Shown here piece by piece: positions 551 to 35,410 of a stretch of 35,410 bases of DNA. The DNA is from Raillietiella orientalis (lineage: Eukaryota). The position numbers and the translations under genes are program-made. The notes beneath the pieces were generated by a model, which was given only the letters and a program-made list of their open reading frames with translations, ran no database searches and was not told the DNA's origin. Where the stretch lies: assembly GCA_036172245.1 (NCBI GenBank), contig JAYWIR010000189.1, forward strand, positions 1 to 35,410, written 5' to 3'. Every line of letters starts with the position of its first letter. Position 1 is the stretch's first letter.

Positions 551-568
551 TTCTTTGGAGTGGTTTTG

Positions 569-6478: not shown

Positions 6479-6620
6479 CAGGAGTCTGCGCGAACGCAGC
6501 CTCCCAACCTAAAAATTATGCTTCCGAGTAACCCGCATTTGGGGTTATCGCGGAGGTCAGCCCCGCCGGCGTGCAATTGCCAGGCCTCGCTCCGGAGGAA
6601 TTGCCGTCGTGAACACAATT
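6479..6620 (-). pseudogene. U1: 5'-truncated U1 snRNA (nt 25-166)
   Basis: Same 142 nt as 569-710 and the same junction to the LINE 3' end (GGGACCTGGAGAA|AATTGTG). Confidence 0.95.
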
Positions 6621-10298: not shown

Positions 10299-11873
10299 TC
10301 CTGTGTTTCTTCTATCTGGGAGAGCGTGGTGCTCTTCCAGACGAAGAAGCGGGAGCGGGTTTCTCGCTGCCAGCGTCGCTCTCCGTCCCGGTGAGATCGG
10401 TGATGTCGGTCTCCTCGGTGGAGTGCTCGGCTCGTGCGACGATCTTGCGTGGGAGGGCTTCCAACGCCACCTTGGCGCGCAGAAGTTTGCCTTTACGTCG
10501 AGAAGTTTGTCTTCCAGTTTTACTCATCAAGCATTATCCACCACTGGTTAGAAACTGTTGTGGCATTCCTGAATATTTCTGGGGGTTTGTTCTCACTGAT
10601 TCCTCTGCACTTCCATGGCTCTCCTCATAATTTTTGACCTCTTCAGTGACCACAGGAGGCCTCCGCAGCCCTGGAATGGATCCACCTTTCCCCAGCCTCA
10701 TAAACTTTCTTCCTTCTGCTGCTGTTTCCTTCTATCATTAGCTTCCTGGGTTAGAGGAGTTTCCTGCTCCTTGACGAGCATCTTCCTCTTCCCCTTCTTC
10801 CCAACTTCAACAAAGCCGTCCGCCGAAACCGGAGAGGCCTCCCTCGCCTTCCTCTGCTTTAATTGTTTTTGCGGTTTCATAACCTCCGCCAAGACCTCCC
10901 TTACGGGAGACTGGCCACGCATCGTCCGGTAGTTTGCGAACTCCGGGCAGCTCCACCTCGCGTGCCCTGGCTGCTTGCAAAACGAGCAGACCTCGGGCAT
11001 ATCGCAACTGCGTACCAGGTGCCCTGCTTCCCACAGCGGAAGCAGCGAGACCTGGGGCAGGCACCCTGACGATGGCCGAAATGTTTGTTCATGCCAGGGA
11101 ACTGGGTTGCTGTCCTCAGGGGCTCAGGAACCTCCTGGGAACCATATCAATGCGCATCTATACTAAGGCTGTCTCCTCTTGCAGCTTCACCTTGGTGATC
11201 ACCTCGCCAGAGAAGATTTTTCCGGAGATGTTCTGGAACTCTACGTCCAGAACCTCCCCATACTTGGACAAGAAGTCCCAAACAGCGTCCTGCTCAGTAT
11301 TAGCGTTTACGCCTTTCAGGAAGACGGTCGTGTACGGCATTTCGCCGATCCCACAAACCATCCGCCCTTGGATGTTTGTGCCCTCCTCGATTAGGGCCTC
11401 CCTCAGTGGTTCACTATCTGTGTAGATAGTGAACCCCGTCGTACTAGGAATGATCGCCTGGAGGTAATCAAAGTCCACATAGGTCTTATAAAGTGCTAAA
11501 TAGACCTCCTTGACGTTGTTAAATCGGATCAGTCCGGTCTTAAACATTATCGGTTTGGATGCTGGACTGAGCCGCTCAATCGGCTCCTTGACCCGGGTGA
11601 TCTTTCCCCTCTCGGGTCTGTCAAATTTTCTCAGCGGCTGGGCACTTGCCTGGCCCGCCGCCACCGCCGCATACGAAAAAGGCCGCAGCACCGCAGCCGA
11701 GCAAGATGGCATCGCGATGTTCGCCACGTGGACGCCCGCGGGTCCCGCCTGGGACACCGCCTCGGGCGCGACCTTAACCGCCGCCGCCGGCACGACCGTT
11801 GCCGCCGCGCGCGCGATCCTCGGCCTCGCCGCCGCCTCACCACTGCCGTAGTGTACCAGGCCAACTAGGCCAC

Positions 11874-11875
<2 letters not shown>

Positions 11876-11923
<48 letters not shown>

Positions 11924-11980
11924 GGTCTTCCTTTTGCATACACACACACACACGCGCGCGCGCGCGCGCGCGCGCGCGCA
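11876..11980. repeat. Compound microsatellite: (AC)22, spacer, (CA)6(CG)13
   Basis: Read directly: AC run 11876-11919, CA 11941-11952, CG 11953-11978. Absent from the other two B copies. Confidence 0.95.
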
Positions 11981-12212
11981 TATCCTCCTCCTGTGCCTGC
12001 ATCCTGGCGGCTGGTACTGCCGCTGAGGAAGTTTGCAGGTCTTCCGCCGTGGTCTCCTCGGCGCTGCTGCTGCAGTTGTAAGGGATGATCCTCGGCAGCA
12101 CTCTCTCTTCCACACTTACTGTCTTTTTGGCACTTGCCCTCTCAGGGCACACACGATCACAAATAATCACAATTAATTAACCGTCGTGAGCCGTGTTGAT
12201 CACAATTGACAC

Positions 12213-13620
12213 TTTCCCCTAGTCCCACAAGGGGTGGGGTGAATTTATTTATCTTTTTCGCTACAATGGCTCGTACATTTATAAAATAAAGTCCAGGAAG
12301 GGCTCAGAGTCCGTTCCTCTCACGCTTGGGGGAGGGATCCCCCCCGGACGGGAGGGGGGGGACCGCAATTCCACGCTAGTTGTCCTCGAAGGAAAATCTC
12401 CTCCTTCATCCTCTCCGGAGGGACGTCCCCCTTACGGGGGGTGGGGGTGGTCCTCTCTCCATTTCAACTTCTCTGAATGGAACCCGGAGAGGTTCCACTT
12501 CTCTGGAGGGTGTCCGCAAGGGAACCACTTCTGTTTACTACTTTGAAGAGAACCTCGAACGGACACTTCCGAAACTTGAAAGGAGCGCTGCAGCTTTCCG
12601 CAGGGGATCGCTTTTGCTTGCTTCCTTGCGTGCACACTCTGTAGGGCGGCGACGACTCGGAGGGACCCCTCACAAGGGGGCGTTCACTCCTTTAGAAAAT
12701 CCTCCTGTTTTTCCTAGGGAACATTGGTTGACTTCGTTGCCTGGGCGTCGTCTTCAATCCTCTTGAGGATATCGCCTTCTGTGCCTCTGAGGTCGGTGGT
12801 TTCTGTGCCCTGTTCCGGCTTTTCATTGGCACTGTCCGGAAGTTTCTCACTTTCGCGCAGTATTCTGCTTTTACTTTGAGAAGCTTGTTTTCCGGCTTCT
12901 CACGGTGGGTTGTCTCTACCGTTCTGTTGATGTCGTCTTGCAGTTCGCAAAATCGTCGCAGTAACCGTTCCTGCTCTTTCTTTTCTTCAATATTTCCTTG
13001 TTGAACCTCTTCCGCTAATTTTCCCAGATCTTCGGTAACCTGTAGGGTTTCCTCTGTTATCGTGACACTTTCTATTTCTATGCTCTTCTTTGTCCACCAT
13101 CTTGCCTTCTTCTACTACTTCCTTTACTTCCTCCTTCTCTTCAGGAACTTCCTGTTCCTCAGGGTAATACTCTTCTCCCTTTCCTTATTACTTCTATAAA
13201 ACGTTCGTGCAGTCGGGGGCCGCGCGCTGCCGGCCGCTTCAAGCGTTCCAGCAGATGGCGTCGCGTCCCTCTTGGCTGGCGATGTCACTGTCGTGGCGAC
13301 GCCGCCGCGACGTTGGCGCGCGCCAGGCCGCTTGAACGGTGGTGCCACCGGCCGCCGCCGTTACCCCCATCGGTGACGCGGGCCTCGGCACCGTTCACGA
13401 GGGGTACCTCCCCATCCTTCAGGTGGGACGGATTCCGGGCCCTCTCCACCCGGGGGTGGTGTCCTTGCTGGGTCGCACCGGCAGGCGCGGGCGTCAGCTG
13501 TCCGAAGAGAGAGAGCGCTGCGTTCTCCTCCAGATTTCACCGCGGAGAGCACAGCCGAACGCTTCGCTCCGCACGCGACCCCCACCAACCGCACTTCTCC
13601 TGTCTTTGCAGTCGCTTTCG
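12213..13620 (-). mobile_element. Unit A copy directly downstream of intact U1
   Basis: 12213-13150 matches the other A copies almost exactly; 13160-13620 is visibly diverged. Hairpin motif at 12222-12243. Confidence 0.85.
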
Positions 13621-13786
13621 AAGGAGGCTGCGCGAACGCAGCCTCCCAACCTAAAAATTATGCTTCCGAGTAACCCGCATTTGGGGTTATCGCGGAGGTC
13701 AGCCCCGCCGCCGTGCAATGGCAAGGCCTCGCTCCGGAGGAATTGCCATCGTGAACACAATTAAGACCTCGAAGCCAGGTAAGTAT
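13621..13786 (-). ncRNA. U1: U1 spliceosomal snRNA, full length (166 nt)
   Basis: 5' ATACTTACCTGG; helix H GAGGTC/GACCTC; SL1 loop GTTCACGATG; SL2 loop CATTGCAC; Sm site AATTTTTAG; perfect SL4 GGAGGCTGCG-TTCG-CGCAGCCTCC. Confidence 0.97.
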
Positions 13787-17177: not shown

Positions 17178-20100
17178 GTGGGCTCTTGGACTGGGCTCGC
17201 CTGTCGCCGAAGGATCCGCGTGGCCTGTTGGAATGTCAACGGGCTGCGCGACGACGGCAACAGGCGAGATACATCCTGCGAGAATTCGACCTGGCGCTTC
17301 TGCAGGAGATCCACGTGATCACTGCAAGAGACGTCGAGGAGATCGAGAGGATCGCAGGGGGTCGGTTGTTTATCATCCGGGTGCGCCGGGGCGTTTATTA
17401 TAAACTATCCGGGAACAGAGTTCCTGGACAAAGGGGAAAACAAGATACGAAGGGGGTGGGATCCCCGAGACGCAGGTCGGTATGGCGAAAGTCCGGAACG
17501 GGAGGGAGGGGACCACAAATAGACTACCATAAAAAATAAAAATAAAAATATGGAGGGCAGGGGACAGGGGTCTTTGGTGAGTCCGTCCCTTTCTTGGGGT
17601 CGGTTGTATTGGCGATGCGGCAAGCGCAACACCTGCGGTGTCGCGTTCCTCCTGAAGCCAGCCGTCCACGCTTCCGTGAGGAACGTACGCTTCGATGACA
17701 ACGGTCGTGTTGGACAGATGATTCTATGCTGGTCTGACACGATCGATCTCATCGTTACCAACGTGTATGCTCCGAGCGGCAGCAAAGGGTACGCAGAAAG
17801 AACTCAGTTCTTCCAGTACCTGAAGCGCGACTGGCTGACGGATGCAGGAGTGCGCAAGGCCCACCTTTTTGCTTGCAGCACGCACCTGATAGCCGGGGAC
17901 TTTAACCTCCGCCTGCTCTCAGGTGCGTGCTGCACGCAAAAGAACGTGCCGATCGAGTTGTGCTCCGCCATGCGCGCGCGCAACTTGATGGAGGGACACC
18001 CGGAAATGGAGAACAGCATCGACCACGTCTTCCTCGACCACGACATGTGTACTCGAGTCGGTATACGAGGAAGGCTCCTGTCGACGCTGTCCGACCATTT
18101 CCGTCTGATGTTCGATGTCTGGCCACGCAATAAAGGACCCCTATCCAGGGCGTGGCGTCTACCGGGGGATTGGACGAGGCTCCCAGGTACGGCGGATCAT
18201 CTCCGCCAATTCCTGAGAGGCGTCACCCTCCGGAATCTCGAGGATTGGGACGTTTTCAAGCGTTCGGTCCGCGAGTTCTGTGAGGAGTTTCCCCTGGGCG
18301 CCTACCCTCCGGGCTTTTGGAAGGAACCGCAACGAAAGGGCGTATCTATACGCCCGTCGTTACGCGAGAACCCCCAACGTCCGTCGCCTGGCCGACTACC
18401 GAGCCGGGGCTGAGCGTCAAGCTTGGCAGTCCGGGCCGCACACCCGGGACGACCAGGACCGCGAACACTCGGCCCCGTCAGCGATTCGACACATGCTGAG
18501 AAAATTTTATTCCTCCTTGTATGCCAGGGGGCCTCCCGAGCAGGACGCCTCGCGACTGTTGCTCCCGGAAGGAGCCAAGGTCATAGGGGAGGAAGAGAAA
18601 GAAAGCCTCGACGAGCCTTTTACAACCGGTGAAATCGTCACCGCGATGAAAGGGCTCAAGAGGAGGAAGGCACCAGGGGAAGACGGCCTGCCCGCGGAGT
18701 TTTTTCAAGGCTTCACGGCAGAGTTAACCCCTTTGGTGCACAGATTGACACAGCTGATCCGGGAAGAAGGCGATGTTCCCGCCTCGTTCCGGTCAGCTAG
18801 GATGAGGTTCCTTCCTAAGGGAGGAGACCTCCGTAAGCTAACCAACTGGCGTCCGATCACTGTCGTGAATACGGACGTCAAGTTGGTCGCGAAACTGTGG
18901 GCTGCGCGGCTCGGACAGGTAGCCGAATCCGTAATTAGCCCGGAGCAGACATACGCTGTTCCCGGGCGAAGTATGGAGGCTAACCTGTTCTTCGCCAGCA
19001 CATGGTTCCATGCGCAACAAGAAAATAAAGAACGCAAGGGATCTCTCGGCTACCCCAATTTAAGGGTGACCGCTGGTCAGGGTGGGGACAGCCGGGCGGG
19101 TAAGGGTGCCCTAGAGATCGCAGTTGATCTTCATAAAGCGTTCGACTGCGTGGACCAGGAGCTCTTCCTGGAGCTTCTGCATCGCATGGGCTTCCCTCCT
19201 ACATTAACGGCGTACCTGCGCTCCTGCTGGCGAGCCGCGTTAACAAACATCTGTTTCAGAGGGCAGAACGTGTATGGCGTGCCGGTGCGCCGCGGGATTC
19301 GGCAGGGCGATAGCCCCAGTCCCCTGCTCTTTAGCACCTATTTCTAACTGGTGCTGAGAGCATACAGGATGACTTTGGCTGCCTTGCCAAGCTCGTGCCC
19401 CAGCACGCCTGCCGTGTCCGCATATGCCGACGATCTCCTGCTACTGCTCCCAATGTCCGCCCCGGCAACGGCAGTCGAATATTTCTTCAATCTGCTAAGC
19501 CGTGGGACAGGGCTACGGGTCAACAGGGCAAAATCGTCGATGGTGACAGTTGGAGCGACGTGGGTAGGACGGCCTGACTGGATCCGCCTGGGGATCCCGA
19601 CTGGCACACATCTGAAGTACCTTGGCGTTCCGCTGGGGGACTTCTGCCCGTCAGAGGCATGGTCAGGCCGTCTTCAGAAAGTGGATTTGGCGATCCGCCC
19701 GTTCCTGGACGGCAAGTTCCACTTGCCGGAACGGGCCGCAGTATGGAACGCTTTTGCGGCTCCCATCCTTCGCCCCCTACTTTTTGTTTGCCCGTCCCCA
19801 AAGAAATAAAAAAGAGGACCAAGGACCTCCTCCGCATCGCCCTTTGGGGCAAGGGGAGGCCCCGAGTCCCTTTGAAGGACCTTTGCGCTCCTCGTCGGGA
19901 CGGCGGACTTAGCCTCCTGACGCTGGAGCGCGTGGAGAAACAGCTGCGATGGCGTACCCTCGCCATCGCAGCGAAGATGTGGAGCACCCCGTGGTGCATT
20001 CCGGCTCGACTCCTCGCCAGTCGTGTGTCCTGGTGCGAGGGACTTGCGTCTTTTCTTCTGTGCCCCGGCCGGAAGATCAGAAGATGTGGCCTACAGCTCG

Positions 20101-21238
20101 GGCGCATGGCATCGTTGGCCATGGAGAACAGCTGGATGGTTTGCTGCCCCGCCAACTCCTCCGCCTGGCTGGAGGAGAACATCGGAACGTGGGCTGTGGT
20201 GAACCAGAGAAGCCACGTAACGTGGAATCGTCTCCGATGCGGCCCCTACGCCCGCTGCACTCTGAGGAATCTCCTGGAGAATCCAGCTAGAAGCACGTGG
20301 GTAGAGACAACCTGCCTGGCTACGGCGCTGCCCTTCCTGAGGAGGGAGCTTCACAGCAGCCGGACGCCAAGGTGGCAAGTCTCCTGCTGCATCGAGGGAC
20401 GGGAGAAAAGAATGAGCGGCTGGACCATGGGTCAACTGGCGGACGCCACGACCCCGAGCGTCCAGCCGCGAGGACTAAGAAGATGGGGCGAGCTGCTGGC
20501 CATCCCTATGGATGTGCTGAAGTGGCCCCCGCTTCTTCAGGAATCCAGGATTCTTCCCCTTAAGTGGAAAGAGTCGGCGTTGCTGTTGTTGCATTGGGGT
20601 TTACCCTGCAACGCACGCCGCTCCCACTGGACAAGAGGAGTTGTGGATCCTGCGTGTGTCAGGTGCGGAGAGCGGGAATCGCTCTCCCACCTTATTGTGG
20701 ACTGTGCTGCCCTTCGTCCCCTTTGGGAACGGTTTGGGACGACCCTCGGTCTCCCTACGGGCAGTTCCCCTAGAGACGTTCTTCGGCCCCTCTTCGTGAA
20801 GGACGCCCTGCAGCCAGCCGCAGCCATCGCAGCCTTGTGCTGCGTCCGAGGCATCGTGGCGGCATGGAGCGACACCAACAAGGAAGGAGTGGGTGAACAC
20901 GCGAGGGATGTCATCCCATATGCCCAACGCTTCTTGCGGAGAGCTGCTGGATGGCCCCAACTGGGGAACATACGGATGGACCTCGAGGGCTTCCTTCAAC
21001 GGATGGGCCCTCCTCTCAGCGAACAGTGATCCCTTCCCTGCCCTCCAACCTCTTTTGTTTGTTTGCGTTTTTATTTTTACTTTTGTTTTTTCCCCATCCC
21101 CTTTCGCTGCCGGGGAGTGCCACGCCGGGCTGCGTCCCGGCGTCCCGGTAGGTCCCGTGCATAAGGCCGTGAGCGGGGCCTGGTACCGCAATTGTAGAGT
21201 TTTTTATCAATAAACGCCCCGGGCGTACCCGGGTGGCA
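17178..21238 (+). mobile_element. LINE D1 (second L1/Tx1-like family): 5'-truncated, ORF2 pseudogene plus 3' UTR
   Basis: ACWNVNGL, LLQEIH, NVYAP, AGDFN, IDHV, SDH; WRPIT, DLHKAFD, GIRQGDSPSP, AYADD, KYLGV; CVRCGERESLSHLIVDC. Contains frameshifts and a stop at 19345-19347. Ends in AATAAA plus hairpin at 21209-21235. Confidence 0.93.
17370..17595 (-). mobile_element. 226-bp antisense nested insertion (3' tail of a D-like element) with 12-bp TSD
   Basis: GGGGTCGGTTGT at 17358-17369 and 17596-17607. Removing the insert restores IAGGRLYWRCG (D2 has IAGGRLFWQCG). Minus strand ends AATAAACGCCCCGGCGCACCCGGATGATAA. Confidence 0.92.
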
Positions 21239-23935
21239 ACTCCAAATCCCCGGGGCAGGCGGTGCAAAGGGAAATCCTCGCAGAACTCGCGGACCGAGAC
21301 CTTCATGCGGTCCCAATCTTCGAGGTTGTGGAGGATGACGTCTCTCAGGAACTGACGGAGATGTTCCGCCGCACCGGAGATGCGCGTCCAGTCCCCTGGC
21401 ATACGCCACGCCCTGGATGGTGGTCCTTTGTCGCGTGGCATAATTTCGATTATCAACCGGAAGTGGTCCGATAGCGTCGATGGAAGTTTCCCTCGTCTGC
21501 CGACCCGTGGGCACAGGTCGGCGTCAAGGAAGACGTGGTCTACGCTTTGGGCCATTTCCGGTAGGTCCCCCAGCAAGCTGCGCGTACGCATAGCGGCGCA
21601 CAACTCGTTGGTTGCGTCTTTTTGCCTGCAAGGCACACCTGAGAGCAGGCGGATGTTGAAATCCCCACCGATCAGATGTGCCTTGCGTACGTTTGTATCC
21701 GCCAGCCAGTCGCGCTTCAGGGTTTCGAGGAACCGGGAACGTTCCCCGTACCCGCGTCCTCCGCTCGGAGCGTACACATTAGTCACGACAAGGTCGATCG
21801 AGTCGGACCACCTAAGGATAAGCTGGCCAACCCGACTGTCCTTGTCGAATCGTACGTCCTTCACGAAGGAAGCGACTGCTGGCTTCATAAAAAACGCGAC
21901 GTCACAGGTGTTGCGAGCGCCGCATTGCCAAAATAGACGACCCCCTGCGATCCTTTCGATCTCCTGGGCGTTCTCCGCGGTGATCACGTGGATCTCCTGC
22001 AGGAGTGCCAGGTCGGAGTCACGCAGGGTGTCGGCCGTGTCCCGCCTGTTGCCGTCATCGCGCAGCCCGTTGACGTTCCAGCAGGCTACGCGTATCCTAC
22101 GGCGACAGGCGAGTCCAGGTGTTAATCCTGGGAAATTGGCAATGGGGCTCCCGCCACCTTGTCGGGCGGGACGCTAGGAGGAGGGGGTGCGTCGCGCACC
22201 GCTTCTCCCTCCTCCATGGAGGACGATTCGTCGTCGGGGCCTTGCAGAGGAAGTAGGGGTTCACCCACCTGCACATCCTCCTCCATGGGGGTCGCTAGCT
22301 GCACGGTGTCGGGGAATGAGATATTCCCACCCTCGCCTCCCACGCTGCCGGCTTCCCCCTCGGGGGCCGATTCATCCGCCTCCTTATTGATCCGGATGCG
22401 CCTCCTGGGATTCTGAGACTTCCGTCCCGTCTTCTTTGGTGGCGCCTCCGCTGAAGAGGACGCACTTTCGACGTCCGGATCGGCCTCACCTGCCTCCGGA
22501 GCCTTCCTCGCGGCCGTCCTTCGCAAGGCTTTTCGCGAGTTCTTTTCACGGCCTTGCAGTTCAGCCGCGAGTTCTTCCACCGCCTGCTGGAAGGCGGCCT
22601 CCTCGATCGCGTCGAGCGCGGCGCGCGGTTCCCCCTCTGTTTCGCCAGAGGGTTCACCATCGACCGTCGCGGCTTCGGCGGACGCGAGGGGGGGGATTGC
22701 TCCCCCGGCGGCGGCATCGGGTGCCTCCACACGTTCTAATTTTACCGAACACGCGCGGAGCTTTTCGCGGCACGGTTTTTCGCGCTGCGTTTTTGTTTTC
22801 ACCGCGTTTCGTTCGGGACTCCCGGGTTTTCTTCGTGGCTGTACCGTCTGCCAGCCTTCGCCGTCACCAGCGTCGTCGGGAGTGTTCTCAACCGACGTTT
22901 GCTGTGAGGGCTTAGGGACTGGCATCTGGGTGTTTACAGCCTGTTTCTGTGTATGCGTCTCTCTCGTGCGTTTCCCCTTTGCCTTTTTGGCAGCGGATGA
23001 GGACGGGATTTCTCTTCTTGGGCACACCTTACGGATGTGGCCCTTATTTCCACATAAGTGGCATTGGATGTTAGGGCACCGCTTTTTTAGATGCCCTGTA
23101 GCATCGCAATGGCCACAATACTTGGGCTTACCCACGTACCAAACATCGACTTTTTCTTCGCCGATATTCAGTTTGTGGGGAAGCCCACCATTCTCTGGTA
23201 GGGTGACGCGGGCTGCGGCCATCCCACTGAATAGCCTTCCGTACGTTCGAAAGACATTGGGTTTGGCCCAATACGCGTGCACACTACTATGCTTCGACAA
23301 CTCCTCATGGACGCTGGTTTTGTCCATTCGGAGTGATACACCTGTGAGGTGGACCACGACGGAGCGGTCCTCCGTCACAGGGAAGATCCTGCGGCCGTCC
23401 ACCGTAATAGGGGTGTTCAGCAGTCGCTGCGCCAGACTTGCCTCTTTGCATGTCAGCTCAACTCGCTGGCCCCCACTAAGGACGGATAGGCCTAAAAGGT
23501 CTTCCTCCCTCACGTTCAACCTTTGCAGCTCCATTTCGAAGGAGCGTGCAATTTTTTCATCAAACACACTGCCTACCCTATAGATCAGAGACGGCTTGTA
23601 GCCGCTGTCCTTGTAGGCAGTCTGCTCCGCTACTGCATCCGGGGATGGTGCAGCAACGACGTCACTCCAACTCCTCGCCAATGGCGAAGAGGGTCGCGAA
23701 GGGGCGGTTGCCCCCGATTCCGATGGGGCAAGTGCCCCGGATTCCGTGGGGGCGGATGCCCCCACTTTGATTGGTGGAGGAGAGCGTGTCGTTTCTCCTT
23801 CTCCAACTTCCATCGCAGTGTCCTCAGGCATTTCTGCCATGGGACACCGGTGCTCCCACACACCAGACAACCAACGAAAAGCTTCCCACTAACCAGTCCG
23901 TGGAGCGATGCCAAACCACGTCCGCTCCCTAGAAC
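21239..23935 (-). mobile_element. LINE D2: 5' half of a D-family element (5' UTR, ORF1, APE domain), cut off before the RT
   Basis: ORF1 22122-23870 followed by the APE frame RIRVACWNVNGL...LLQEIH...NVYAP...GGDFN...SDH, homologous to D1 and ending near 21240. Confidence 0.9.
22122..23870 (-). CDS. LINE ORF1 (gag-like nucleic-acid-binding protein); likely ATG start at 23840
   Basis: Open 582-codon frame with SWSDVV N-terminal motif, an RRM-like region, two CCHC knuckles (CGHCDATGHLKKRC, CHLCGNKGHIRKVC) and a low-complexity acidic tail. Confidence 0.9.
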   Translation of the reverse strand: MSGVWEHRCPMAEMPEDTAMEVGEGETTRSPPPIKVGASAPTESGALAPSESGATAPSRPSSPLARSWSDVVAAPSPDAVAEQTAYKDSGYKPSLIYRVGSVFDEKIARSFEMELQRLNVREEDLLGLSVLSGGQRVELTCKEASLAQRLLNTPITVDGRRIFPVTEDRSVVVHLTGVSLRMDKTSVHEELSKHSSVHAYWAKPNVFRTYGRLFSGMAAARVTLPENGGLPHKLNIGEEKVDVWYVGKPKYCGHCDATGHLKKRCPNIQCHLCGNKGHIRKVCPRREIPSSSAAKKAKGKRTRETHTQKQAVNTQMPVPKPSQQTSVENTPDDAGDGEGWQTVQPRRKPGSPERNAVKTKTQREKPCREKLRACSVKLERVEAPDAAAGGAIPPLASAEAATVDGEPSGETEGEPRAALDAIEEAAFQQAVEELAAELQGREKNSRKALRRTAARKAPEAGEADPDVESASSSAEAPPKKTGRKSQNPRRRIRINKEADESAPEGEAGSVGGEGGNISFPDTVQLATPMEEDVQVGEPLLPLQGPDDESSSMEEGEAVRDAPPPPSVPPDKVAGAPLPISQD

Positions 23936-24540
23936 GACCCGGGGAAGTGTGAACGCAAACTGTGCCCGGTGCGGGGAGCGGGAAATCCTCCCGCACCTTT
24001 TAGTTGAGTGTGCTGCCCTCCGGCCCCTGTGGGAACGTTTCGGTTCCACCTTAGGGATCCTGGAAGGTAGTCTTCCCAGAGACGTATTTCGGCTCCTCTT
24101 CGTGCGGGACGCCCTGCAGCCAGCCGCTGTTATAGCAGCTCTCTGCTGCGTACGCGGTATTGTGGCAGCTTGGAGTGGATCCGACGAAGCAGAGGATGTT
24201 AACAGAAGGAATGCCATAGAGTATGCAGCTCGCTTTCTGCGAATAGCATCCCGATGGCCCCACCTGGGAAATCTGCAGAAGGACCTCGTCGGCATCCTGC
24301 AAAGGATGGAAGCTCCACAAAACGGACAGTGATCCCTTCCCGGCCCTCCCAATGACCAGTGTTTCTACTTTTTATTTTTTTATTTTTGTTTTTTCCCTAA
24401 CCCCATCCGTTGACGTGGAGTGTTATGTCGGTCTGTGCACTGACCACCAGACAGCTCCATAGAACTATTGGCCGCAGCGGGACCTTGTACCGCAAATACT
24501 GTTAGTTTTTAAATAAACGCCCCGGCTTGACCGGGTGAAA
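23936..24540 (+). mobile_element. LINE D3: 3'-terminal fragment (zinc finger, ORF2 stop at 24332, 3' UTR)
   Basis: TRGSVNANCARCGEREILPHLLVECAALRPLWERFG aligns with D1. Ends AATAAACGCCCCGGCTTGACCGGGTGAAA. Confidence 0.9.
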
Positions 24541-27089: not shown

Positions 27090-27607
27090 GAACACGCACA
27101 CAGCATTCACGTAAAGCAAACGGGCTTGCGAAACAGCACAAAGAGTCAAAGGCCATAGCATTCAAGTGGGGTGAGCCGCCGGAATGCATACGGCCGTCTC
27201 GGGAGACGCGCAACGTCTGCCTGCGACGACTGGGTCGCGCGTGCGGCGCAGACAGGCGCACTCTCTGCGCGTGCGCGCGCACCGTTCGTTGCGACATGTG
27301 CCCCATCGCAAGAGGCTGGGGCGCTGGATGCAGCGACGAGTAGTGCGCAGATGGAAAAACAGAGGGAGAGAGAGGGGTGACGAGGCAAAGTGCTAAGCAA
27401 AAGGGAAAACGAAAACGGAAGATGAAATCCTGGAGGAAAAGCGGAAAAGCAGATACTGCAAAGGAGGAAGGGAATTAGGAAGCGTAGGAGACTGAGGCAA
27501 AGCAAGGAGAAGGTCAAGAGCAAGGGAAGCGAAAGTCTTGTAAAGAGGCAATACGGGGCAGGTGGATATGCGGAACGGGGAGGGGAAATGGGTGCAATAG
27601 AAGTTTC
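27090..27607 (+). promoter_or_regulatory. U1 upstream flank (expected promoter)
   Basis: Diverged duplicate of 13787-14311; conserved block at 27547-27570. Confidence 0.5.
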
Positions 27608-27773
27608 ATACTTACCTGGCTTCGAGGTCTTAATTGTGTTCACGATGGCAATTCCTCCGGAGCGAGGCCTGGCCATTGCACGCCGGCGGGGCTGACCTCC
27701 GCGATAACTCCAAATGCGGGTTACTCGGAAGCATAATTTTTAGGTTGGGAGGCTGCGTTCGCGCAGACTCCTG
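27608..27773 (+). ncRNA. U1: U1 spliceosomal snRNA, full length (166 nt)
   Basis: ATACTTACCTGG at 27608, CATTGCAC loop, Sm site AATTTTTAG at 27735-27743, SL4 with TTCG loop and one stem mismatch (AGACTCC). Confidence 0.97.
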
Positions 27774-29178
27774 CAAAAGCCAATGCAAAGACAGGAGAAG
27801 CGGTTGCTGCCGATCGCGTGCGGAGCGAAGCTTTCGGCTGTGCTTTCCGCCGTGAACTCTGGAGGAGAACACAGCGCTCTCTCTTCGGACAGCTGACGCG
27901 CGCCCCGGCCGGTGCGACCCAGCAAGGACACCACCCCTGGGTGGAGGACTCGGAATCCGCTCCACCTCAAGGATGGGGAAGTCCCCCTCGTGAACGTTGC
28001 CGAGGCCCGCGTCTCCGATGGCCGGCGGCCGGTGGCACCACCGTTCAAGCGGCCTGGCGCGCGCAAGCGTCGCGGCGGCGTCGCCACGACAAGCGACATC
28101 GCCAGCTAAGAGGGACGCGACGCCATCTTGCTGGAACGCCCCAGCCGGCCGTGGCAGCGGGCAAAGTGGCCCCCGACTGCACGAACGTTTTATAGAAGTA
28201 ATAAGGAAAGGGAGAAGGAGAATACTCCCGAGGGAACAGGAAGTTCCTGAAGAGAAGGAGGAAGTAAAGGAAGTAGTAGAAGAAGGCAAGATGGTGGACA
28301 AAGAAGAGCATAGAAATAGAAAGTGTCACGATAACAGAGGAAACCCTACAGGTTACCGAAGATCTGGGAAAATTAGCGGAAGAGGTTCAACAAGGAAATA
28401 TTGAAGAAAAGAAAGAGCAGGAACGGTTACTGCGACGATTTTGCGAACTGCAAGACGACATCAACAGAACGGTAGAGACAACCCACCGTGAGAAGCCGGA
28501 AAACAAGCTTCTCAAAGTAAAAGCAGAATACTGCGCGAAAGTGAGAAACTTCCGGACAGTGCCAATGAAAAGCCGGAACAGGGCACAGAAACCACCGACC
28601 TCAGAGGCACAGAAGGCGATATCCTCAAGAGGATTGAAGACGACGCCCAGGCAACGAAGTCAACCAATGTTCCCTAGGAAAAACAGGAGGATTTTCTAAA
28701 GGAGTGAACGCCCCCTTGTGAGGGGTCCCTCCGAGTCGTCGCCGCCCTACAGAGTGTGCACGCAAGGAAGCAAGCAAAAGCGATCCCCTGCGGAAAGCTG
28801 CAGCGCTCCTTTCAAGTTTCGGAAGTGTCCGTTCGAGGTTCTCTTCAAAGTAGTAAACAGAAGTGGTTCCCTTGCGGACACCCTCCAGAGAAGTGGAACC
28901 TCTCCGGGTTCCATTCAGAGAAGTTGAAATGGAGAGAGGACCACCCCCACCCCCCGTAAGGGGGACGTCCCGCCGGAGAGGATGAAGGAGGAGATTTTCC
29001 TTCGAGGACAACTAGCGTGGAATTGCGGTCCCCCCCCGCCCGTCCGGGGGGGATCCCTCCCCCAAGCGTGAGAGGAACGGACTCTGAGCCCTTCCTGGAC
29101 TTTATTTTATAAATGTACGAGCCATTGTAGCGAAAAAGATAAATAAATTCACCCCACCCCTTGTGGGACTAGGGGAAA
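27774..29178 (+). mobile_element. Unit A: 1405-bp non-autonomous LINE derivative; the first tens of bp may be native U1 3' flank
   Basis: Encodes ITEETLQVTEDLGKLAEEV...ENKLLKVKAEYCA (B ORF1: VSQEALQTTEEVKKLAEEV...EDKLLDVKANFCA) and ILKRIEDDAQ (B ORF2 end: ILKRIEDDAR). Hairpin motif at 29148-29169. Confidence 0.85.
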
Positions 29179-29220
29179 GTGTCAATTGTGATCAACACGG
29201 CTCACGACGGTTAATTAATT

Positions 29221-32200
29221 GTGATTATTTGTGATCGTGTGTGCCCTGAGAGGGCAAGTGCCAAAAAGACAGTAAGTGTGGAAGAGAGAGTGCTGCCGAG
29301 GATCATCCCTTACAACTGCAGCAGCAGCGCCGAGGAGACCACGGCGGAAGACCTGCAAACTTCCTCAGCGGCAGTACCAGCCGCCAGGATGCAGGCAACA
29401 GGAGGAGGAGCGAGGAGGCCGACGTCCCCCATAGAAGTAATCGAGGTACACTACGGCAGTGGTGAGGCGGCGGCGAGGCCGAGGATCGCGCGCGCGGCGG
29501 CAACGGTCGTGCCGGCGGCGGCGGTTAAGGTCGCGCCCGAGGCGGTGTCCCAGGCGGGACCCGCGGGCGTCCACGTGGCGAACATCGCGATGCCATCTTG
29601 CTCGGCTGCGGTGCTGCGGCCTTTTTCGTATGCGGCGGTGGCGGCGGGCCAGGCAAGTGCCCAGCCGCTGAGAAAATTTGACAGACCCGAGAGGGGAAAG
29701 ATCACCCGGGTCAAGGAGCCGATTGAGCGGCTCAGTCCAGCATCCAAACCGATAATGTTTAAGACCGGACTGATCCGATTTAACAACGTCAAGGAGGTCT
29801 ATTTAGCACTTTATAAGACCTATGTGGACTTTGATTACCTCCAGGCGATCATTCCTAGTACGACGGGGTTCACTATCTACACAGATAGTGAACCACTGAG
29901 GGAGGCCCTAATCGAGGAGGGCACAAACATCCAAGGGCGGATGGTTTGTGGGATCGGCGAAATGCCGTACACGACCGTCTTCCTGAAAGGCGTAAACGCT
30001 AATACTGAGCAGGACGCTGTTTGGGACTTCTTGTCCAAGTATGGGGAGGTTCTGGACGTAGAGTTCCAGAACATCTCCGGAAAAATCTTCTCTGGCGAGG
30101 TGATCACCAAGGTGAAGCTGCAAGAGGAGACACAGATCCCTGGGATTGTGCGTATTGATGAAGACTCCCAGGAGGTCTCTGTCTCTTATAGACAGCAACC
30201 TGTGTTCTGCACAGGTTGCAAACTTTTTGGCCATCGTCGGGGTGCCTGCCCCAGGGTTCGCTGCTTCCGCTGTGGGAAGCAGGGGCACCTGGTAAGCAGT
30301 TGCGACATGCCCGAGGTCTGCTCGTTTTGCAAGCAGCCAGGGCATGCGAGCTGGAGCTGCCCGGAGTTCGCAAACTACCGGACGATGCGTGGCCAGTCCC
30401 CCGTAAGGGAGAAGGTCTTGGCGGAGGTTGTGAAACCTCAAAAACAGTTGAAGCAGAGGGAGGCGAGGGAGACCGCTCCGGTTTCGGCGGACGGCTTTGT
30501 GGAGGCTGGTAAGAAGGGGAAGAGGAAGATGCTCATCAAGGATCAGGAAACTCCTCTAACCCAGGAAGTATTGGCAGTGGAAGGCGAAAATATGGAAGTA
30601 GCGGAAGAAAGCGAGAGGGCGGAAAAGGTGGAATCCATTCCGGTGTCGCAGGAGGCCCTGCAGACTACCGAAGAGGTCAAAAAATTGGCGGAGGAGGTTA
30701 TGGAAGTGCAGAGCGAACCTCAGCAGGAGCAACTCCTGCAGAAGATCTGCAATGCGCAACAAACAGTCAACCAGGTGGTGGAGGTTGCCGAGCGCGAGAA
30801 ACTGGAAGACAAACTTCTCGACGTAAAGGCAAACTTCTGCGCGCCAAGGTGGCGTTGGAAGCCCTCCCACGCAAGATCGTCGCACGAGCCGAGCACTCCA
30901 CCGAGGAGACCGACATCACCGATCTCACCGGGACGGAGAGCGACGCTGGCAGCGAGAAACCCGCTCCCGCTTCTTCGTCTGGAAGAGCACCACGCTCTCC
31001 CAGATAGAAGAAACACAGGAATGCCAAGAGGTAGGCCTTCCCCTTTTATGGCCTCAACCCTATCGACCGCCAGGAGGATTAACATCGCCTCCTGGAATGT
31101 AAATGGTCTGATCAACCAGGTTAAAAGAAGAAGGATTGTGCGGATCATCGCACAACAAGACATCGTGTGCCTGCAGGAGACCCACACGTTAGGTCTCCAG
31201 ATCATCCAGCAAATGGAACGACGCTTCGATGGGCAGATGTTCGTCAGCGAAGGACAGCGGAACACGGAAGGTGTGGTGGTCTTGGTCAAGAACCAACTGG
31301 CCCCTACCATTCTGGAAGTCTTCTGTCCCTTGCCGGGACGTATCATTGGCGTACGACTGGCCTGGTCCGCTAACGTTCACCTTTTCTTGGTAAACGTGTA
31401 CGGGCCACACAGGTACAAACATCGATTTGCGGAGGCGCTGCATGCGGCACTGCGGGAAAAGGTGGCGCCCAAGGACGTCGTGATCGTTGCTGGCGATCTC
31501 AACATCCGGGACGAAATAATATATTCCCAGGACGCCAGAGGAAGGACGGCGTATCGGCGGCTTTCCGGCGAGTTCGGATTGCTGTGGCGAACGGCAAGCC
31601 ACAGGCCAATAGACCACGTCCTTCACAGTACTGAATCAGGGAACCGCATTGAAGGTTTTCGTGACATCCCCAACGCGTTGTCCGATCACTCGTTGGTGCG
31701 ATTTTCCTTAAGGACGGAAAATCCTCGGCGAAGGCAAGGCACCAGGGCGGCGCTCATCAGCATGCCCACCTGGTTCGAGAATCCTCCCTGTCATCAGGAA
31801 GTTCTGGAGACGATTCTGAAGACCACCACGATCCGAAGAGTCGCCGACTGGGACAGCCTGAAGCACAGGATCCATCTCTTTGCAAATATGCAATTCGGAG
31901 ATAGAAGGAGATGGAGGCAGGAGGCGTACCGGAAGCTGAACATCCAAGATCGCTCCCTCTCAAAGTACTTTGATCAGTACGAGAGTCGGTACGTCTTCCA
32001 TAGCATAAAAGGGGAAGTCGGCGTACTGGAGAAGAAGAATCTGGCCACAGATATCTTTCGGATTCATAGCCGACACACGTCGGAGGACATCGTGGATGCC
32101 TTCGAAAGGCATTACACGAAACACTTTCGGCGCGATCATCTGTGTCAGGCGATACAGAATACCTTCCTGAGCCATCTGAAAAGGAAGATTGGCGAGCTCC

Positions 32201-33675
32201 AGCGTAAGAGTCTGGAGGAGGATTTTTCCGAGGAAGAGGTGAAGACTGCGTTCAAGGAATTACGCAAGGATGTGGCGGCAGGACCTGACAGTGTTCCCAT
32301 CAGTCACTATCAACGGTACCTGCACGCCTACTTGCGGTTATTCCACCAGTTGACCCTCTGCATCCGCCAAGAAGGACGATTGCCGGAGTCCTTCTACGAG
32401 AGTAGGACGAGATTGTTGCCGAAAGGAGGTGATCTAATAACGCAGGTCACCCAATGGAGGCCAATCTCAGTGCTCAACTCGGATGCCAAGTGGTTGGCAA
32501 AGATCTGGGCCAACCGCTTAGGCAAGGTTATGTCGAGGCTGATTTCTCCCGTCCAGAGATGTGCGGTACCGGGACGCCACATGTCGGACAATGTTAAGTG
32601 CGCGCAGGCCACCGTGGGACTTGGCCGATACGTCGGCGAGAACCTGGTGCTCGCGTTCACCGACATGGAGAAAGCCTTCGACACCATCGACCACGGGATG
32701 CTGCTGAAGATTCTGGAAAAACTGGGACTTCCCGAATACTTCAGCACCTTTGTGGAAATGATCCTCCGGAATCAACGTTTCCGGATGAAGATCAACGGTT
32801 TGGAAACAGCAGCTATTCGGAGGGAACGAGGAGTCCGGCAAGGAGACTCGCTAAGTCCGATGCTGTTTGTTATCTATATGGAGGCGCTCTCTTCATTTAT
32901 TGAGAACAGTGGGAGATTACAAGGAATAAAAATTGACAACCAAAAGCTCACCCATCTCGCCTACGCGGATGATCTTCTCTTCTTCATCAGGGGAAAGAGG
33001 AATCAACAAGCGTTATTGGATGTGGTGATGCTCATGAAAGAGGGACTGGGCCTGAAGATCAACGCCCAGAAGAGCCAGCTTTTGCCCGTCGGTATCCTGG
33101 AAATCTCCGCTCTCACGGGGAGAGGATTCCGAACGGTGGACACGGCCAAGTACCTGGGAGTGTACATTGGCGACGACGCTGCGTCGAAGCTACTGTGGAA
33201 GGAAATCCTGGGGAAAACGGCAGAGGAAGCAGCGAAATACACCCAACTGGGTTTTGACATGAAGCGAAAGGCCAACCTATGGAATGGAGTACTCCTTCCA
33301 AAGGTACTCTTGGGAACGGCCTTCGCCAAGTTGAACAAAGAAAACACCAGAGAAGTGGAAAAGCTGCAGAGGAAAACATTGTGGGGACACTATCGCCCAA
33401 GAGTCCGACTGAAACAACTGTGTCGTCCCAGGGAAGAAGGCGGTTCAGGGATGAAGTCGCTCGCACATTTCATGGAAATCATGGATATGCAACACATCCT
33501 GGACATCGCTACTCACTGGGATGACCGGCCGTACGCGGCCCACAGAGCCTACGCGTTGTTGTTGAACAACTCGAAAGGCATGATGACTGGTGCTGGAAGA
33601 ACAGAACAGGAGAAGTGGAACACCATCGACCTCACCTGGATACGAAAACAATTAGTGTGCGAAAGCACGAGATAA
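29221..33675 (+). CDS. Fused ORF1-ORF2 frame (first ATG 29389; ORF2 ATG 31021): 3 CCHC knuckles, APE, RT
   Basis: CTGCKLFGHRRGAC, CFRCGKQGHLVSSC and CSFCKQPGHASWSC, followed in frame by APE and RT motifs. Breaks in the noisy patch 33590-33700. Confidence 0.9.
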   Translation: MIICDRVCPERASAKKTVSVEERVLPRIIPYNCSSSAEETTAEDLQTSSAAVPAARMQATGGGARRPTSPIEVIEVHYGSGEAAARPRIARAAATVVPAAAVKVAPEAVSQAGPAGVHVANIAMPSCSAAVLRPFSYAAVAAGQASAQPLRKFDRPERGKITRVKEPIERLSPASKPIMFKTGLIRFNNVKEVYLALYKTYVDFDYLQAIIPSTTGFTIYTDSEPLREALIEEGTNIQGRMVCGIGEMPYTTVFLKGVNANTEQDAVWDFLSKYGEVLDVEFQNISGKIFSGEVITKVKLQEETQIPGIVRIDEDSQEVSVSYRQQPVFCTGCKLFGHRRGACPRVRCFRCGKQGHLVSSCDMPEVCSFCKQPGHASWSCPEFANYRTMRGQSPVREKVLAEVVKPQKQLKQREARETAPVSADGFVEAGKKGKRKMLIKDQETPLTQEVLAVEGENMEVAEESERAEKVESIPVSQEALQTTEEVKKLAEEVMEVQSEPQQEQLLQKICNAQQTVNQVVEVAEREKLEDKLLDVKANFCAPRWRWKPSHARSSHEPSTPPRRPTSPISPGRRATLAARNPLPLLRLEEHHALPDRRNTGMPRGRPSPFMASTLSTARRINIASWNVNGLINQVKRRRIVRIIAQQDIVCLQETHTLGLQIIQQMERRFDGQMFVSEGQRNTEGVVVLVKNQLAPTILEVFCPLPGRIIGVRLAWSANVHLFLVNVYGPHRYKHRFAEALHAALREKVAPKDVVIVAGDLNIRDEIIYSQDARGRTAYRRLSGEFGLLWRTASHRPIDHVLHSTESGNRIEGFRDIPNALSDHSLVRFSLRTENPRRRQGTRAALISMPTWFENPPCHQEVLETILKTTTIRRVADWDSLKHRIHLFANMQFGDRRRWRQEAYRKLNIQDRSLSKYFDQYESRYVFHSIKGEVGVLEKKNLATDIFRIHSRHTSEDIVDAFERHYTKHFRRDHLCQAIQNTFLSHLKRKIGELQRKSLEEDFSEEEVKTAFKELRKDVAAGPDSVPISHYQRYLHAYLRLFHQLTLCIRQEGRLPESFYESRTRLLPKGGDLITQVTQWRPISVLNSDAKWLAKIWANRLGKVMSRLISPVQRCAVPGRHMSDNVKCAQATVGLGRYVGENLVLAFTDMEKAFDTIDHGMLLKILEKLGLPEYFSTFVEMILRNQRFRMKINGLETAAIRRERGVRQGDSLSPMLFVIYMEALSSFIENSGRLQGIKIDNQKLTHLAYADDLLFFIRGKRNQQALLDVVMLMKEGLGLKINAQKSQLLPVGILEISALTGRGFRTVDTAKYLGVYIGDDAASKLLWKEILGKTAEEAAKYTQLGFDMKRKANLWNGVLLPKVLLGTAFAKLNKENTREVEKLQRKTLWGHYRPRVRLKQLCRPREEGGSGMKSLAHFMEIMDMQHILDIATHWDDRPYAAHRAYALLLNNSKGMMTGAGRTEQEKWNTIDLTWIRKQLVCESTR

Positions 33676-33724
33676 AAAGGTCCAGTCAGAAAGTAGGGAA
33701 CTCTGGCAGGAGGAATCCATCCTG

Positions 33725-34561
33725 GTGATCCCATGGATGCTTCCGGTCCCCCAAGACACGAGAAGCTGGATCTGCCAGCGATCCAGAGTTACCCTACAAC
33801 GCATCCAGGAGTTCAGAAGAGGAGTACACCCACATCACACTCGTATACTTCGGTATGTAGAGATGATGGTGGGAAGGTTCACCCATATGACCCGCGAAGT
33901 GTGGATCAACCACGATGACCTCGCGTGGTCCAGGGTAACCAAGATGAACCTCCGAAGAATGATTAAGGATGAGAACCAAGACACCAGCGTCCTCCAAGAA
34001 GCTGCCGATCGCTACGGGAGTAACCGTTTTGACCTGTTGGCGTTTGGCACGACACTCTGGAGGGATGACCTTCCGCCGGACACTGTGGACGAACTCCTGA
34101 TGTTCTATCATGGAGGAATCCAGACTGGGTCCAGGCTCAAGCATTTCACAGGAAGACGGGAAGATGAAGACTGCAGGGCATGTGGAGACATCGATACGAG
34201 ACTACACATCTTGACGTGTCCCACTTTGCTACGCGACTGGCTGATCCTGAAAGGGATCATAGGACAAAACAAGTCCGTGATGGAAATCCTCTCCGGGATG
34301 TTTCAGGGAGATGGTAAGGTTCCCTGTTACAATGCCATGGTGAGGATGACCATTGCCCTCTTCATCACCGCCATACTTTTGCGGTGGTGGAATATGAGAA
34401 ATGCCAGGAGAACCAGAACCCCCATGGAGATCCTACAAGGACTCATCCGCAGGGAGATTGGTATCAGGAACTGTGGACGACTCCAAGCCTGGACGTACCG
34501 ATTTATCCTGAAGAGGATTGAGGACGACGCACGGGACCAAACATCTGGAAACCCACCCTGA
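33725..34561 (+). CDS. C-terminal part of B ORF2 (zinc finger), separated by a frameshift that may be a consensus error
   Basis: Matches the last 277 aa of ORF 6759-10298. Confidence 0.85.
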   Translation: MIPWMLPVPQDTRSWICQRSRVTLQRIQEFRRGVHPHHTRILRYVEMMVGRFTHMTREVWINHDDLAWSRVTKMNLRRMIKDENQDTSVLQEAADRYGSNRFDLLAFGTTLWRDDLPPDTVDELLMFYHGGIQTGSRLKHFTGRREDEDCRACGDIDTRLHILTCPTLLRDWLILKGIIGQNKSVMEILSGMFQGDGKVPCYNAMVRMTIALFITAILLRWWNMRNARRTRTPMEILQGLIRREIGIRNCGRLQAWTYRFILKRIEDDARDQTSGNPP

Positions 34562-34699
34562 ATGCAGAACTTTGAGTGTCCCAACGGACCTTCAAGTGAA
34601 GTGAAAGTGATAATATATTGTGTGAATGAAATTGTAGTATGAATGTTTAAGAAAAATTTGAAAAAAAAATTCACCCCACCCCTTGTGGGACCTGGAGAA

Positions 34700-34841
34700 A
34701 ATTGTGTTCACGACGGCAATTCCTCCGGAGCGAGGCCTGGCAATTGCACGCCGGCGGGGCTGACCTCCGCGATAACCCCAAATGCGGGTTACTCGGAAGC
34801 ATAATTTTTAGGTTGGGAGGCTGCGTTCGCGCAGACTCCTG
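34700..34841 (+). pseudogene. U1: 5'-truncated U1 snRNA (nt 25-166)
   Basis: 142 nt with the same variants as 569-710 and 6479-6620 (GACGG in SL1, GGCAATTGCAC in SL2). Confidence 0.95.
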
Positions 34842-34859: not shown

Positions 34860-35260
34860 AAATCGCCCAACGTTGTTCAAGAACGGTGATCTCCCCTCCA
34901 CCCTCCGAACGCCGTGTACCTGCGTGGCGTACACTGCAACACCGCGCAGGAAGACGTGTGGGACCACTTCTGCCGGTTCGGAGGAGGTGAAGGAGGTGTC
35001 CTTCGGCAACTACGTGGACGAACTGTTCTCGCGAGAGGTCATGGTGAAGATCAAGCTCTCCGTGGATGTGCGGATCCCGGGCATCGTCAGGATGGACGAA
35101 TATTCCCAGGATGTACAGTGCGCTATCGCCTGCAGCCCGTCTTCTGCGCGGGCTGCAAGGAGTTTGGGCACCGCATAGGCGCTTGCCCGGAAGCGAAATG
35201 CTCCGAGTGCGGTCAAGTCGGGCACTGCATAAAGGATCGCACCGGTTGCACTGCCTAATT
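34860..35260 (+). pseudogene. Unit C: degenerate ORF1 RRM-like + knuckle fragment of a B-related LINE
   Basis: VYLRGVHCNTAQEDVWDHFCRFG, FSREVMVKIKL and YRLQPVFCAGCKEFGHRIGACPEAKCSECGQVGH align with B VFLKGVNANTEQDAVWDFLSKYG, FSGEVITKVKL and YRQQPVFCTGCKLFGHRRGACPRVRCFRCGKQGH. Confidence 0.85.
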
Positions 35261-35410
35261 TTGCCGCCGCTGCGTAGTTGGGCGTAAGATGGTGCCGCCG
35301 CTGCCACGCCGGGCGCGTTGCTACGGGAGATTGCTCCTCTCCTGCCGAGTCGGTAAACTTGCTTCGCGGCTCAAAGTATTGTGCGCTCGACAACTTAATC
35401 TGTTAATTGT

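Follow-up and report, generated by a model that had tools for sequence, protein, structure and literature searches.

Two LINE lineages at one U1 snRNA gene position in Raillietiella orientalis, one of them probably an internally deleted relic copied along with its locus

The long interspersed nuclear elements (LINEs) R2 and R1 of Drosophila are accompanied by short internally deleted elements, the SIDEs (Eickbush and Eickbush 2012, PMC3414825). In crocodilians, short interspersed nuclear elements (SINEs) headed by U1 or U2 small nuclear RNA (snRNA) have been described as SINEU and are mobilised by Tx1-Mar (Kojima 2015, PMC4494074). The LINE Utopia, found in U2 arrays of Phytophthora, has an intact U2 gene upstream and U2 from nucleotide (nt) 39 downstream, and not nt 1-38 in front; its authors considered a deletion at integration, or recombination or conversion (Kojima and Jurka 2015, PMC4640811). 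Here we analyse a U1 gene locus of Raillietiella orientalis situated in one contig stretch of 35,410 nt (JAYWIR010000189.1, positions 1 to 35,410; called the window, to which all comparisons between copies refer). In this locus a 1.39-kb unit, designated A, and a LINE, designated B, follow one another behind U1 sequence.

Five matches to U1 snRNA above the gathering score were found with Rfam (RF00003). Two are complete; the remaining three score 89.2 bits each, and alignment of the copies as well as blastn with U1 places the beginning of their true U1 part at nt 25. Read on the plus strand, the right arm of the locus consists of an upstream flank (27090-27607), U1, 18 nt of U1 3' flank, A, B, U1(25-166), a further flank and D, a LINE fragment. 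The left arm, read on the minus strand, consists of a flank, U1, the 18-nt flank, A, B, U1(25-166), the 18-nt flank, A, B, U1(25-166) and a flank with D; its two units are called left-1 and left-2 in this order. Both arms can be written as U1(1-24) + n x [U1(25-166) + 18 nt + A + B] + U1(25-166), where the right arm contains the bracketed unit once (n = 1) and the left arm contains it twice (n = 2). They are inverted around a centre of 12.8 kb with copies of another LINE family. An upstream flank of about 520 nt is common to both complete U1 genes. Behind U1 two kinds of flank occur, between which no homology was found past position +18 (score 24, shuffles 23.0 +/- 3.5).

The U1 copies also differ in two bases. 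Both complete genes carry T39 and C67 (positions 27646 and 27674 in the right copy), all three truncated ones C39 and A67. Nucleotide 67 is, as we assume, the base closing the AUUGCAC loop of U1 stem-loop II; if so, the change in the truncated copies would be damaging, and the base in the complete ones would be the functional one.

Judging from the junctions, A and B were probably inserted separately at the same U1 position, nt 24/25. All three copies of B end directly in front of U1 nt 25, each with the identical junction to a truncated U1. The tail of A (…GGGGAAAGTGTC) differs from that of B (…CCTGGAGAA), and both are followed by AATTGTG, which is U1 nt 25-31; behind A, 14 of 17 positions match U1 nt 25-41, then B follows. 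Because the 3' end of A is complete and is not that of B, although it abuts U1 nt 25 just as B does, two events at one site are the likely reading, and this is evidence for site specificity. The abutment is seen in three of three A copies and three of three B copies, and all A copies agree in their 5' and 3' junctions; two independent events are the most that can be counted.

The 5' side of A is different. A canonical insertion would leave U1 nt 1-24 in front of the element, whereas A is preceded by a whole U1 followed by 18 nt of flank. According to the preliminary description of this DNA, all three A copies follow U1 immediately; the 3' end of U1 does precede A in all three, but the 18 conserved flank bases lie in between.

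From the sequence comparisons, A is an internally deleted derivative of a LINE lineage related to B and not a deleted B, because the homologous parts of the two are about a quarter diverged. The right copy of A comprises 1392 nt (27792-29183, plus strand), its 3' end having been placed at 29178 before. The homologies between A and B lie, by these alignments, far beyond chance (tblastx, summed E = 1.6e-25). The C-terminal part of open reading frame 1 (ORF1) of B is recovered in A in three colinear tblastx segments (24.6% identity over 57 amino acids (aa), 39.0% over 41 aa and 36.4% over 66 aa), in agreement with what had been described. With blastn the ORF1 pieces are 75-78% identical, the ORF2 end 92.6% over 27 nt and the last 50 nt 84%. 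At about position 28620 A jumps from the ORF1 tail to the last codons of ORF2, and the peptides quoted earlier for this jump are indeed present in A and in B. The stretch with the three zinc knuckles of B has no counterpart in A by tblastx, as had been noted; an RNA recognition motif (RRM) was also said to be lacking in A, and here B itself gave no RRM match in Pfam.

For the 5' part of A a match of 17/17 nt to the ORF1 N-terminal region of left-2 B was found (E 6e-4), which shares the frame of the C-terminal homology of A (ATPSC versus AMPSC). This match makes a second deletion, of the knuckle region, plausible and suggests that A probably keeps the 5' end of its parent LINE; the 5' part would then probably consist of the 5' untranslated region (UTR) and an ORF1 N-terminal remnant. 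Compared as a whole with the 5' end of B, the first 360 nt of A gave no convincing similarity (score 47; shuffles 32.8 +/- 5.0, maximum 49). The doubly deleted LINE of the preliminary description can thus be kept as an internally deleted derivative of a B-related lineage with a plausible second deletion, the parent being a LINE other than B itself.

The 3' UTR of A ends with the 25-nt sequence AATTCACCCCACCCCTTGTGGGAC, which the window contains six times, once at the end of each of the three A and three B copies, and nowhere else. A had been credited with a 3' UTR of its own of about 500 bp that ends in the hairpin of B. Its length (506 nt) and the shared end bear this out, but the hairpin has a stem of only 3-4 bp and folds no better than shuffled sequences (z -0.37 and 0.04). 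A ends without an A-run, with the motif directly at U1 nt 25. An AATAAA signal is found at 29142-29147, 36 nt before the 3' end of A, whereas B has no such signal at the matching place. Furthermore, the 3' UTR contains three 24-nt modules (28709-28732, 28947-28970 and 29037-29060) that are 67-71% alike. Each is built of a C-run, a short loop, a G-run and a TCCCTCC-like sequence; they resemble the terminal motif with weak similarity and may be reiterated binding sites.

A is non-coding. All frames contain stops, the ORF1-like part can be read only with two frame shifts, and the only sizeable open reading frame (128 codons from 28021) has six indels in the left-1 copy. The proposal that A acts as a helper is therefore unlikely, since its frames are broken and differ from copy to copy.

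B is the autonomous element of the locus. Its ORF2 encodes an endonuclease of the apurinic/apyrimidinic (AP) type (Pfam Exo_endo_phos, 5.9e-21) and a reverse transcriptase (RVT_1, 1.2e-32). In the translation of ORF1 three CX2CX4HX4C knuckles are visible, which stay just below the Pfam threshold (zf-CCHC, 20.4 bits, cut-off 20.8). An RRM in ORF1 found no Pfam match, and a single-sequence AlphaFold model was useless for this purpose (predicted local distance difference test score 31.5). A search with ORF2 among 5.8 billion proteins returned 156 matches, the best with at most 31% identity and none from the source organism; some of these relatives have the zf-RVT domain (PF13966). At its 5' end B carries a leader with U1-like pieces, of which TCACGACGG corresponds to U1 nt 33-41 and TTAATTGTG to U1 nt 23-31. 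Eight of the 62 6-mers of this 67-nt leader occur in U1, all within nt 23-33, a count that was reached by 43 of 2000 shuffles.

The copies of B have features of their own. Left-1 B contains a (GC)n(GT)n microsatellite insertion in its 5' region (about 11857-11983, minus strand) that is absent from the other two copies. In left-2 B, which is 4-5% diverged, a deletion at 3537/3538 (minus strand) removes what corresponds to 30640-31871 of the right copy.

In several respects B is similar to Keno and other LINEs of the Tx1 clade, which have an ORF2 with AP endonuclease and reverse transcriptase and CCHC knuckles in ORF1, and which, lacking a poly(A) tail, insert precisely into small RNA genes present in many copies (PMC4494074). 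Targets of this clade are U2, U5, 5S, microsatellites or other repeats, and transposons (PMC4494074). The passages cited do not name U1 as a target, and it is by the features listed that B is likened to the clade.

With the SIDEs A has in common that an internal-deletion derivative of a site-specific LINE has kept both its ends and occupies the target site of its parent (PMC3414825): A, too, is internally deleted with its ends retained, and it is inserted at the target site of its partner B. Like SIDEs, it would depend on co-transcription with the target and on the reverse transcriptase of a partner. SIDEs differ in that they are multi-copy and show the 5' junction variation typical of reverse transcription, whereas A is known from three copies with identical junctions in a single duplicated locus. 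Moreover, SIDEs target 28S and A targets U1, and no 5' ribozyme was found for A. A search for a ribozyme or another RNA family near the U1/A and A/B borders yielded none at E <= 5 besides U1 and three sub-threshold matches at chance level.

With SINEU the combination of U1 and A shares the U1 sequence located 5' of a LINE-dependent sequence and a target-specific, Tx1-like partner (PMC4494074). SINEU are, however, short, dispersed, abundant and poly(A)-tailed, and their heads were added repeatedly, whereas A is 1.39 kb long, has no poly(A) and is known here from a single locus. A is thus not a short element with an snRNA head demonstrably retroposed along with it, nor does it have a poly(A) tail. 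What had been called the head of A is a U1 gene, whole and accompanied by the upstream flank of about 520 nt in two of the three copies, and running 18 nt beyond the mature 3' end in all three. U1 is described as having no internal promoter (PMC4494074). We conclude that this is not a head of the SINEU type, because it includes flank past the mature U1 end and because U1 lacks an internal promoter; the U1-headed element proposed in the preliminary description is not supported in this form.

An R2 element with a 5' extension of snU12 in Drosophila ambigua offers another parallel, in which a site-specific LINE carries an snRNA at its 5' end that seems to have spread together with it (PMC3414825). 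There the reverse transcriptase jumped to a mature snRNA, whereas here the U1 part runs 18 nt into the flank. This argues for a genomic or read-through origin of the U1 part rather than for a template jump to mature U1 snRNA. Utopia, finally, resembles our locus in that an snRNA-specific LINE is followed by the 3' part of its target and preceded by an intact snRNA gene, and in that several families occupy one array for which recombination and conversion are suspected (PMC4640811). It differs in having a restriction-like endonuclease and in its target, U2 nt 38/39, in contrast to the AP-type endonuclease of B and U1 nt 24/25.

The two arms of the locus are related far beyond the units themselves. 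The homology between the upstream flanks starts sharply at 27090/14311. In the 5' part of A, right and left-1 copies share 527 matches with 48 mismatches and 25 gap columns (about 92%), and the downstream flanks including D share 481 matches with 46 mismatches and 24 gap columns (about 91%), the value also found for the upstream flanks. The mirror copy of D lies within 1-551 (minus strand), and in both arms D begins about 75-140 nt behind the terminal U1(25-166); the last 40 nt of D could be aligned to the B leader only with gaps (score 25), and this likeness is unsupported. As the 5' part of A, about 8% diverged, differs between the arms as much as the shared flanks do, A was present before the arms were duplicated. 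A was therefore copied along with its locus, and the three A copies are not three independent observations.

Within the duplicated units the degree of identity changes abruptly. Tracts of at least 300 nt without a mismatch connect right and left-2 (27710-28971), left-1 and left-2 (28233-29223) and right and left-1 (31785-33588), the last pair also in five more such tracts; the patches in between reach up to 27% mismatch (54 of 200 columns). The left-1 copy of B contains an outlier patch (30131-30799 in right-arm coordinates) with 17-27% mismatch amid otherwise identical copies, and hence a much more diverged relative of B outside the window is needed as donor. This mosaic pattern shows repeated gene conversion with donors outside the window, and identity between copies accordingly says little about recent insertion. 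The U1 head of left-2 is chimeric, with the bases of the truncated type at nt 39 and 67 followed by the 3' flank of the intact type, which is the product expected of an exchange within U1 homology. The end of the right/left-2 tract 40 nt past the end of A was considered as a sign of a separate insertion of A and was rejected as not significant: with about 8 free tract ends per 7-kb unit, an end this close is expected in about 1 case in 10.

The preliminary description had regarded U1 plus A as a separate mobile unit. Against this, the copies share both junctions, the arms share their flanks, and the U1 of the third copy is recombinant; one insertion copied by duplication is a better fit to the window than a mobile U1+A.

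On balance, although with no great confidence, we favour a history that as a whole took place at the DNA level, with A as a SIDE-like relic. A U1 snRNA gene cluster would have been colonised by LINEs inserting between U1 nt 24 and 25. A would be the relic of a second lineage which lost most of ORF1 and nearly all of ORF2 internally, kept both ends and no longer has mobility of its own. It would have entered a U1 copy at nt 24/25 first; B would have entered the same site later, right behind A, so that the piece resembling U1 nt 25-41 would come to separate the two. The block [U1 nt 25-166 + 18 nt + A + B] would then have multiplied as DNA, by an inverted segmental duplication that took the flanks along and by a tandem duplication through exchange within U1 homology, while repeated gene conversion would preserve identity over long tracts. 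The simplest source of the intact U1 that precedes A would be a neighbouring U1 gene, and by analogy this seems the most economical reading: the first 24 nt of the target and the spacer would have been lost at or after integration, as proposed for Utopia in the Phytophthora U2 arrays. R2 has been reported to cause large upstream deletions (PMC3414825).

Several observations weigh against this history. Left-2 A is identical to right A and not to its tandem neighbour left-1, from which it is 8% apart in the 5' part; at least one long conversion between the arms has therefore to be added, and a history at the DNA level alone takes many steps. Two different LINE remnants start shortly after U1 has ended, A at +18 and D about 75-140 nt behind it, and a mechanism carrying U1 along would explain both without separate deletions. 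The 25-nt 3' motif is 100% alike in A and B, which are about 22-25% apart elsewhere, and the A lineage must therefore have used the same or a like reverse transcriptase until its insertion. Finally, the window contains neither an intact U1 with its native flank nor a B preceded by U1 nt 1-24.

Alternatively, U1 with its flank and A, or the composite of U1, A and B, could be read through from the U1 promoter and form a unit at the RNA level, a possibility that deserves attention but that we would not expect to prove right. The enzyme of B would reverse-transcribe this RNA at a nick at U1 nt 24/25 and the 5' side would be joined via U1 homology, so that each insertion rebuilds a promoter-driven intact U1 in front and leaves U1 25-166 behind; in this shape the proposal of the preliminary description would become workable. 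The array, with n = 1 and n = 2, reads exactly as such a process would leave it, and the chimeric U1 head of left-2 fits homology-guided 5' joining as well. In the left arm the promoter-proximal unit has an open ORF2 (1254 codons) and the distal one shows a deletion and a divergence of 4-5%, the order that would result from new units entering a rebuilt U1. The U1 nt 23-41-like pieces in the B leader may be left over from co-transcription with U1, A has retained the terminal motif of B, R2 is known with snU12 at its 5' end (PMC3414825), and integration is known to benefit from co-transcription with the target (PMC3414825, PMC4494074). On the other hand, all three A copies lie in one duplicated locus, in which D and the promoter flank are common to the arms at the divergence of the A 5' part, and the identical tract of right and left-2 passes the end of A by 40 nt with 0 mismatches where about 3 are expected. 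Moreover, the left-2 unit has no U1 promoter in front, and no ribozyme or processing signal was found near the U1/A and A/B borders. Carried further, the LINEs of this locus would travel as U1 read-through transcripts with U1 nt 25-166 and its 3' flank at the 5' end, would thereby be self-healing and secure their own transcription, and A would be a non-autonomous rider; this extended form we hold to be rather unlikely.

A long target-site duplication would likewise leave a whole U1 upstream. With the bottom-strand nick at U1 nt 24/25 and the top-strand nick 18 nt past the U1 3' end, each insertion would duplicate U1 25-166 plus 18 nt (160 nt). In all five copies the A-type and D-type flanks do part at exactly +18, the structure can be written as U1(1-24)+[25-166+18]+insert+[25-166+18], and the top-strand sites of Utopia vary, with duplications of 0 or 20 bp (PMC4640811). 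We nevertheless consider this improbable: 4 of 18 positions are different between the two copies of the flank and two diagnostic positions between the U1 parts, the junction of B suggests a duplication of only about 17 nt, and A and B would become a single insert, which is at odds with the complete 3' end that A itself possesses. Collapsed or mis-polished repeats in the assembly, which would render copy number and mosaic pattern unreliable, might be suspected from the abrupt switches between blocks with 0 mismatches and blocks with 17-27% mismatch and from the window ends, both of which stop within 6 nt of the same repeat place. But the arms differ in length by one whole unit, and they have private indels, the microsatellite, the 1.2-kb deletion and unique flanks that are 8-9% diverged, which a fold-back or collapse would not yield, so that an artefact seems very improbable indeed.

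Features of the U1 locus in the window
Feature	Position	Strand	Evidence or remark
U1, complete, right arm	27608-27773	+	Rfam RF00003, 118.8 bits, model positions 1-166
U1, complete, left arm	13621-13786	-	Rfam, 127.2 bits
U1 nt 25-166, 3' target half behind right B	34700-34841	+	alignment, blastn
U1 nt 25-166, between left-1 B and left-2 A	6620-6479	-	alignment, blastn
U1 nt 25-166, behind left-2 B	710-569	-	alignment, blastn
U1 upstream (promoter-side) flank, right arm	27090-27607	+	about 91% identical to left-arm 14311-13787
18-nt U1 3' flank	27774-27791	+	kept in all five U1 copies up to CAAAGA
A, 5' part (probable 5' UTR and ORF1 N-terminal remnant)	27792-28149	+	17/17-nt match to B ORF1 N-terminal region
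A, homology to the C-terminal part of ORF1, frame-shifted	28150-28620	+	tblastx against B, three-frame translation
A, last 19 ORF2 codons and stop	28621-28677	+	68.4% aa identity to B ORF2 end
A, 3' UTR, 506 nt, ending in 25-nt motif of B	28678-29183	+	blastn
Left arm copy 1: U1 13786-13621, 18-nt flank, A 13602-12208	12208-13786	-	Rfam, junction strings
Left arm copy 2: U1 nt 25-166 6620-6479, 18-nt flank, A 6460-5069	5069-6620	-	blastn, alignment, junction strings
LINE B, right copy: ORF1, ORF2, frame break near 33660	29184-34699	+	translations, Pfam
B leader of U1 nt 23-41-like pieces (AATTGTG..., TCACGACGG, TTAATTGTG)	29184-29250	+	6-mer count
LINE B, left copy 1: ORF2 open, 1254 codons	6621-12207	-	self-comparison, translation
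LINE B, left copy 2: 1.2-kb internal deletion, broken frames	711-5068	-	self-comparison, alignment
D, decayed ORF1 fragment of a third LINE (knuckle region)	34984-35234	+	tblastx against B: 61.5% over 39 aa, 40.3% over 62 aa

Searches beyond the window were made as well. Metagenome contigs contained no match to a 22-nt version of the shared tail motif and none to a 29-nt U1 pattern. Among proteins of similar length, the 61-aa peptide spanning the junction in A found no candidate, and the 139-aa ORF1-like frame of A found 12 candidates, none with E <= 0.01. One sequencing run, which may stem from another strain or species, contained 0.11 of the sampled words of the window, and no RNA run was listed as containing them. 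At 85% likeness 133 of its contigs could be placed, 4 with at least 99% identity, 14 with 95-99%, 46 with 90-95% and 69 with less than 90%. They cover ORF2 of B densely, the 3' part of A thinly and the bin 27888-28131 not at all, contig depth not being copy number; one contig skips 28673-29138.

The centre between the arms contains the other LINE family at 17523-21029 (plus strand), 21016-23888 (minus strand) and 23496-24332 (plus strand), with ORF1 with CCHC knuckles, endonuclease and reverse transcriptase. This family has no meaningful homology to A and no tail motif in common with it. Base 1 of the window pairs with base 35404, and both ends (1-20 and 35390-35410) stop within 6 nt of one repeat point; they lie in the string TTAATCTGTTAATTGT, which loosely resembles the U1-like leader of B. 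The record may break at the start of further B copies on either side.

LINEs with a specific target serve as models for site-directed insertion tools and for the life of selfish DNA in essential genes that exist in many copies. A literature search, whose coverage excluded most subscription journals and Repbase Reports, found no U1-specific LINE, and in the passages cited U1 is named as a target only for the Dada DNA transposons. An internally deleted companion at the same site would be among the few SIDE-type elements outside the ribosomal DNA. If U1 was not carried along, the locus still shows clearly how elements decay, nest and evolve in concert within a cluster of snRNA genes. If it was, and the gene was restored in this way, this would be a new way for a retrotransposon to spare its target, and self-healing of this kind might also account for the intact U2 genes that precede Utopia in Phytophthora.

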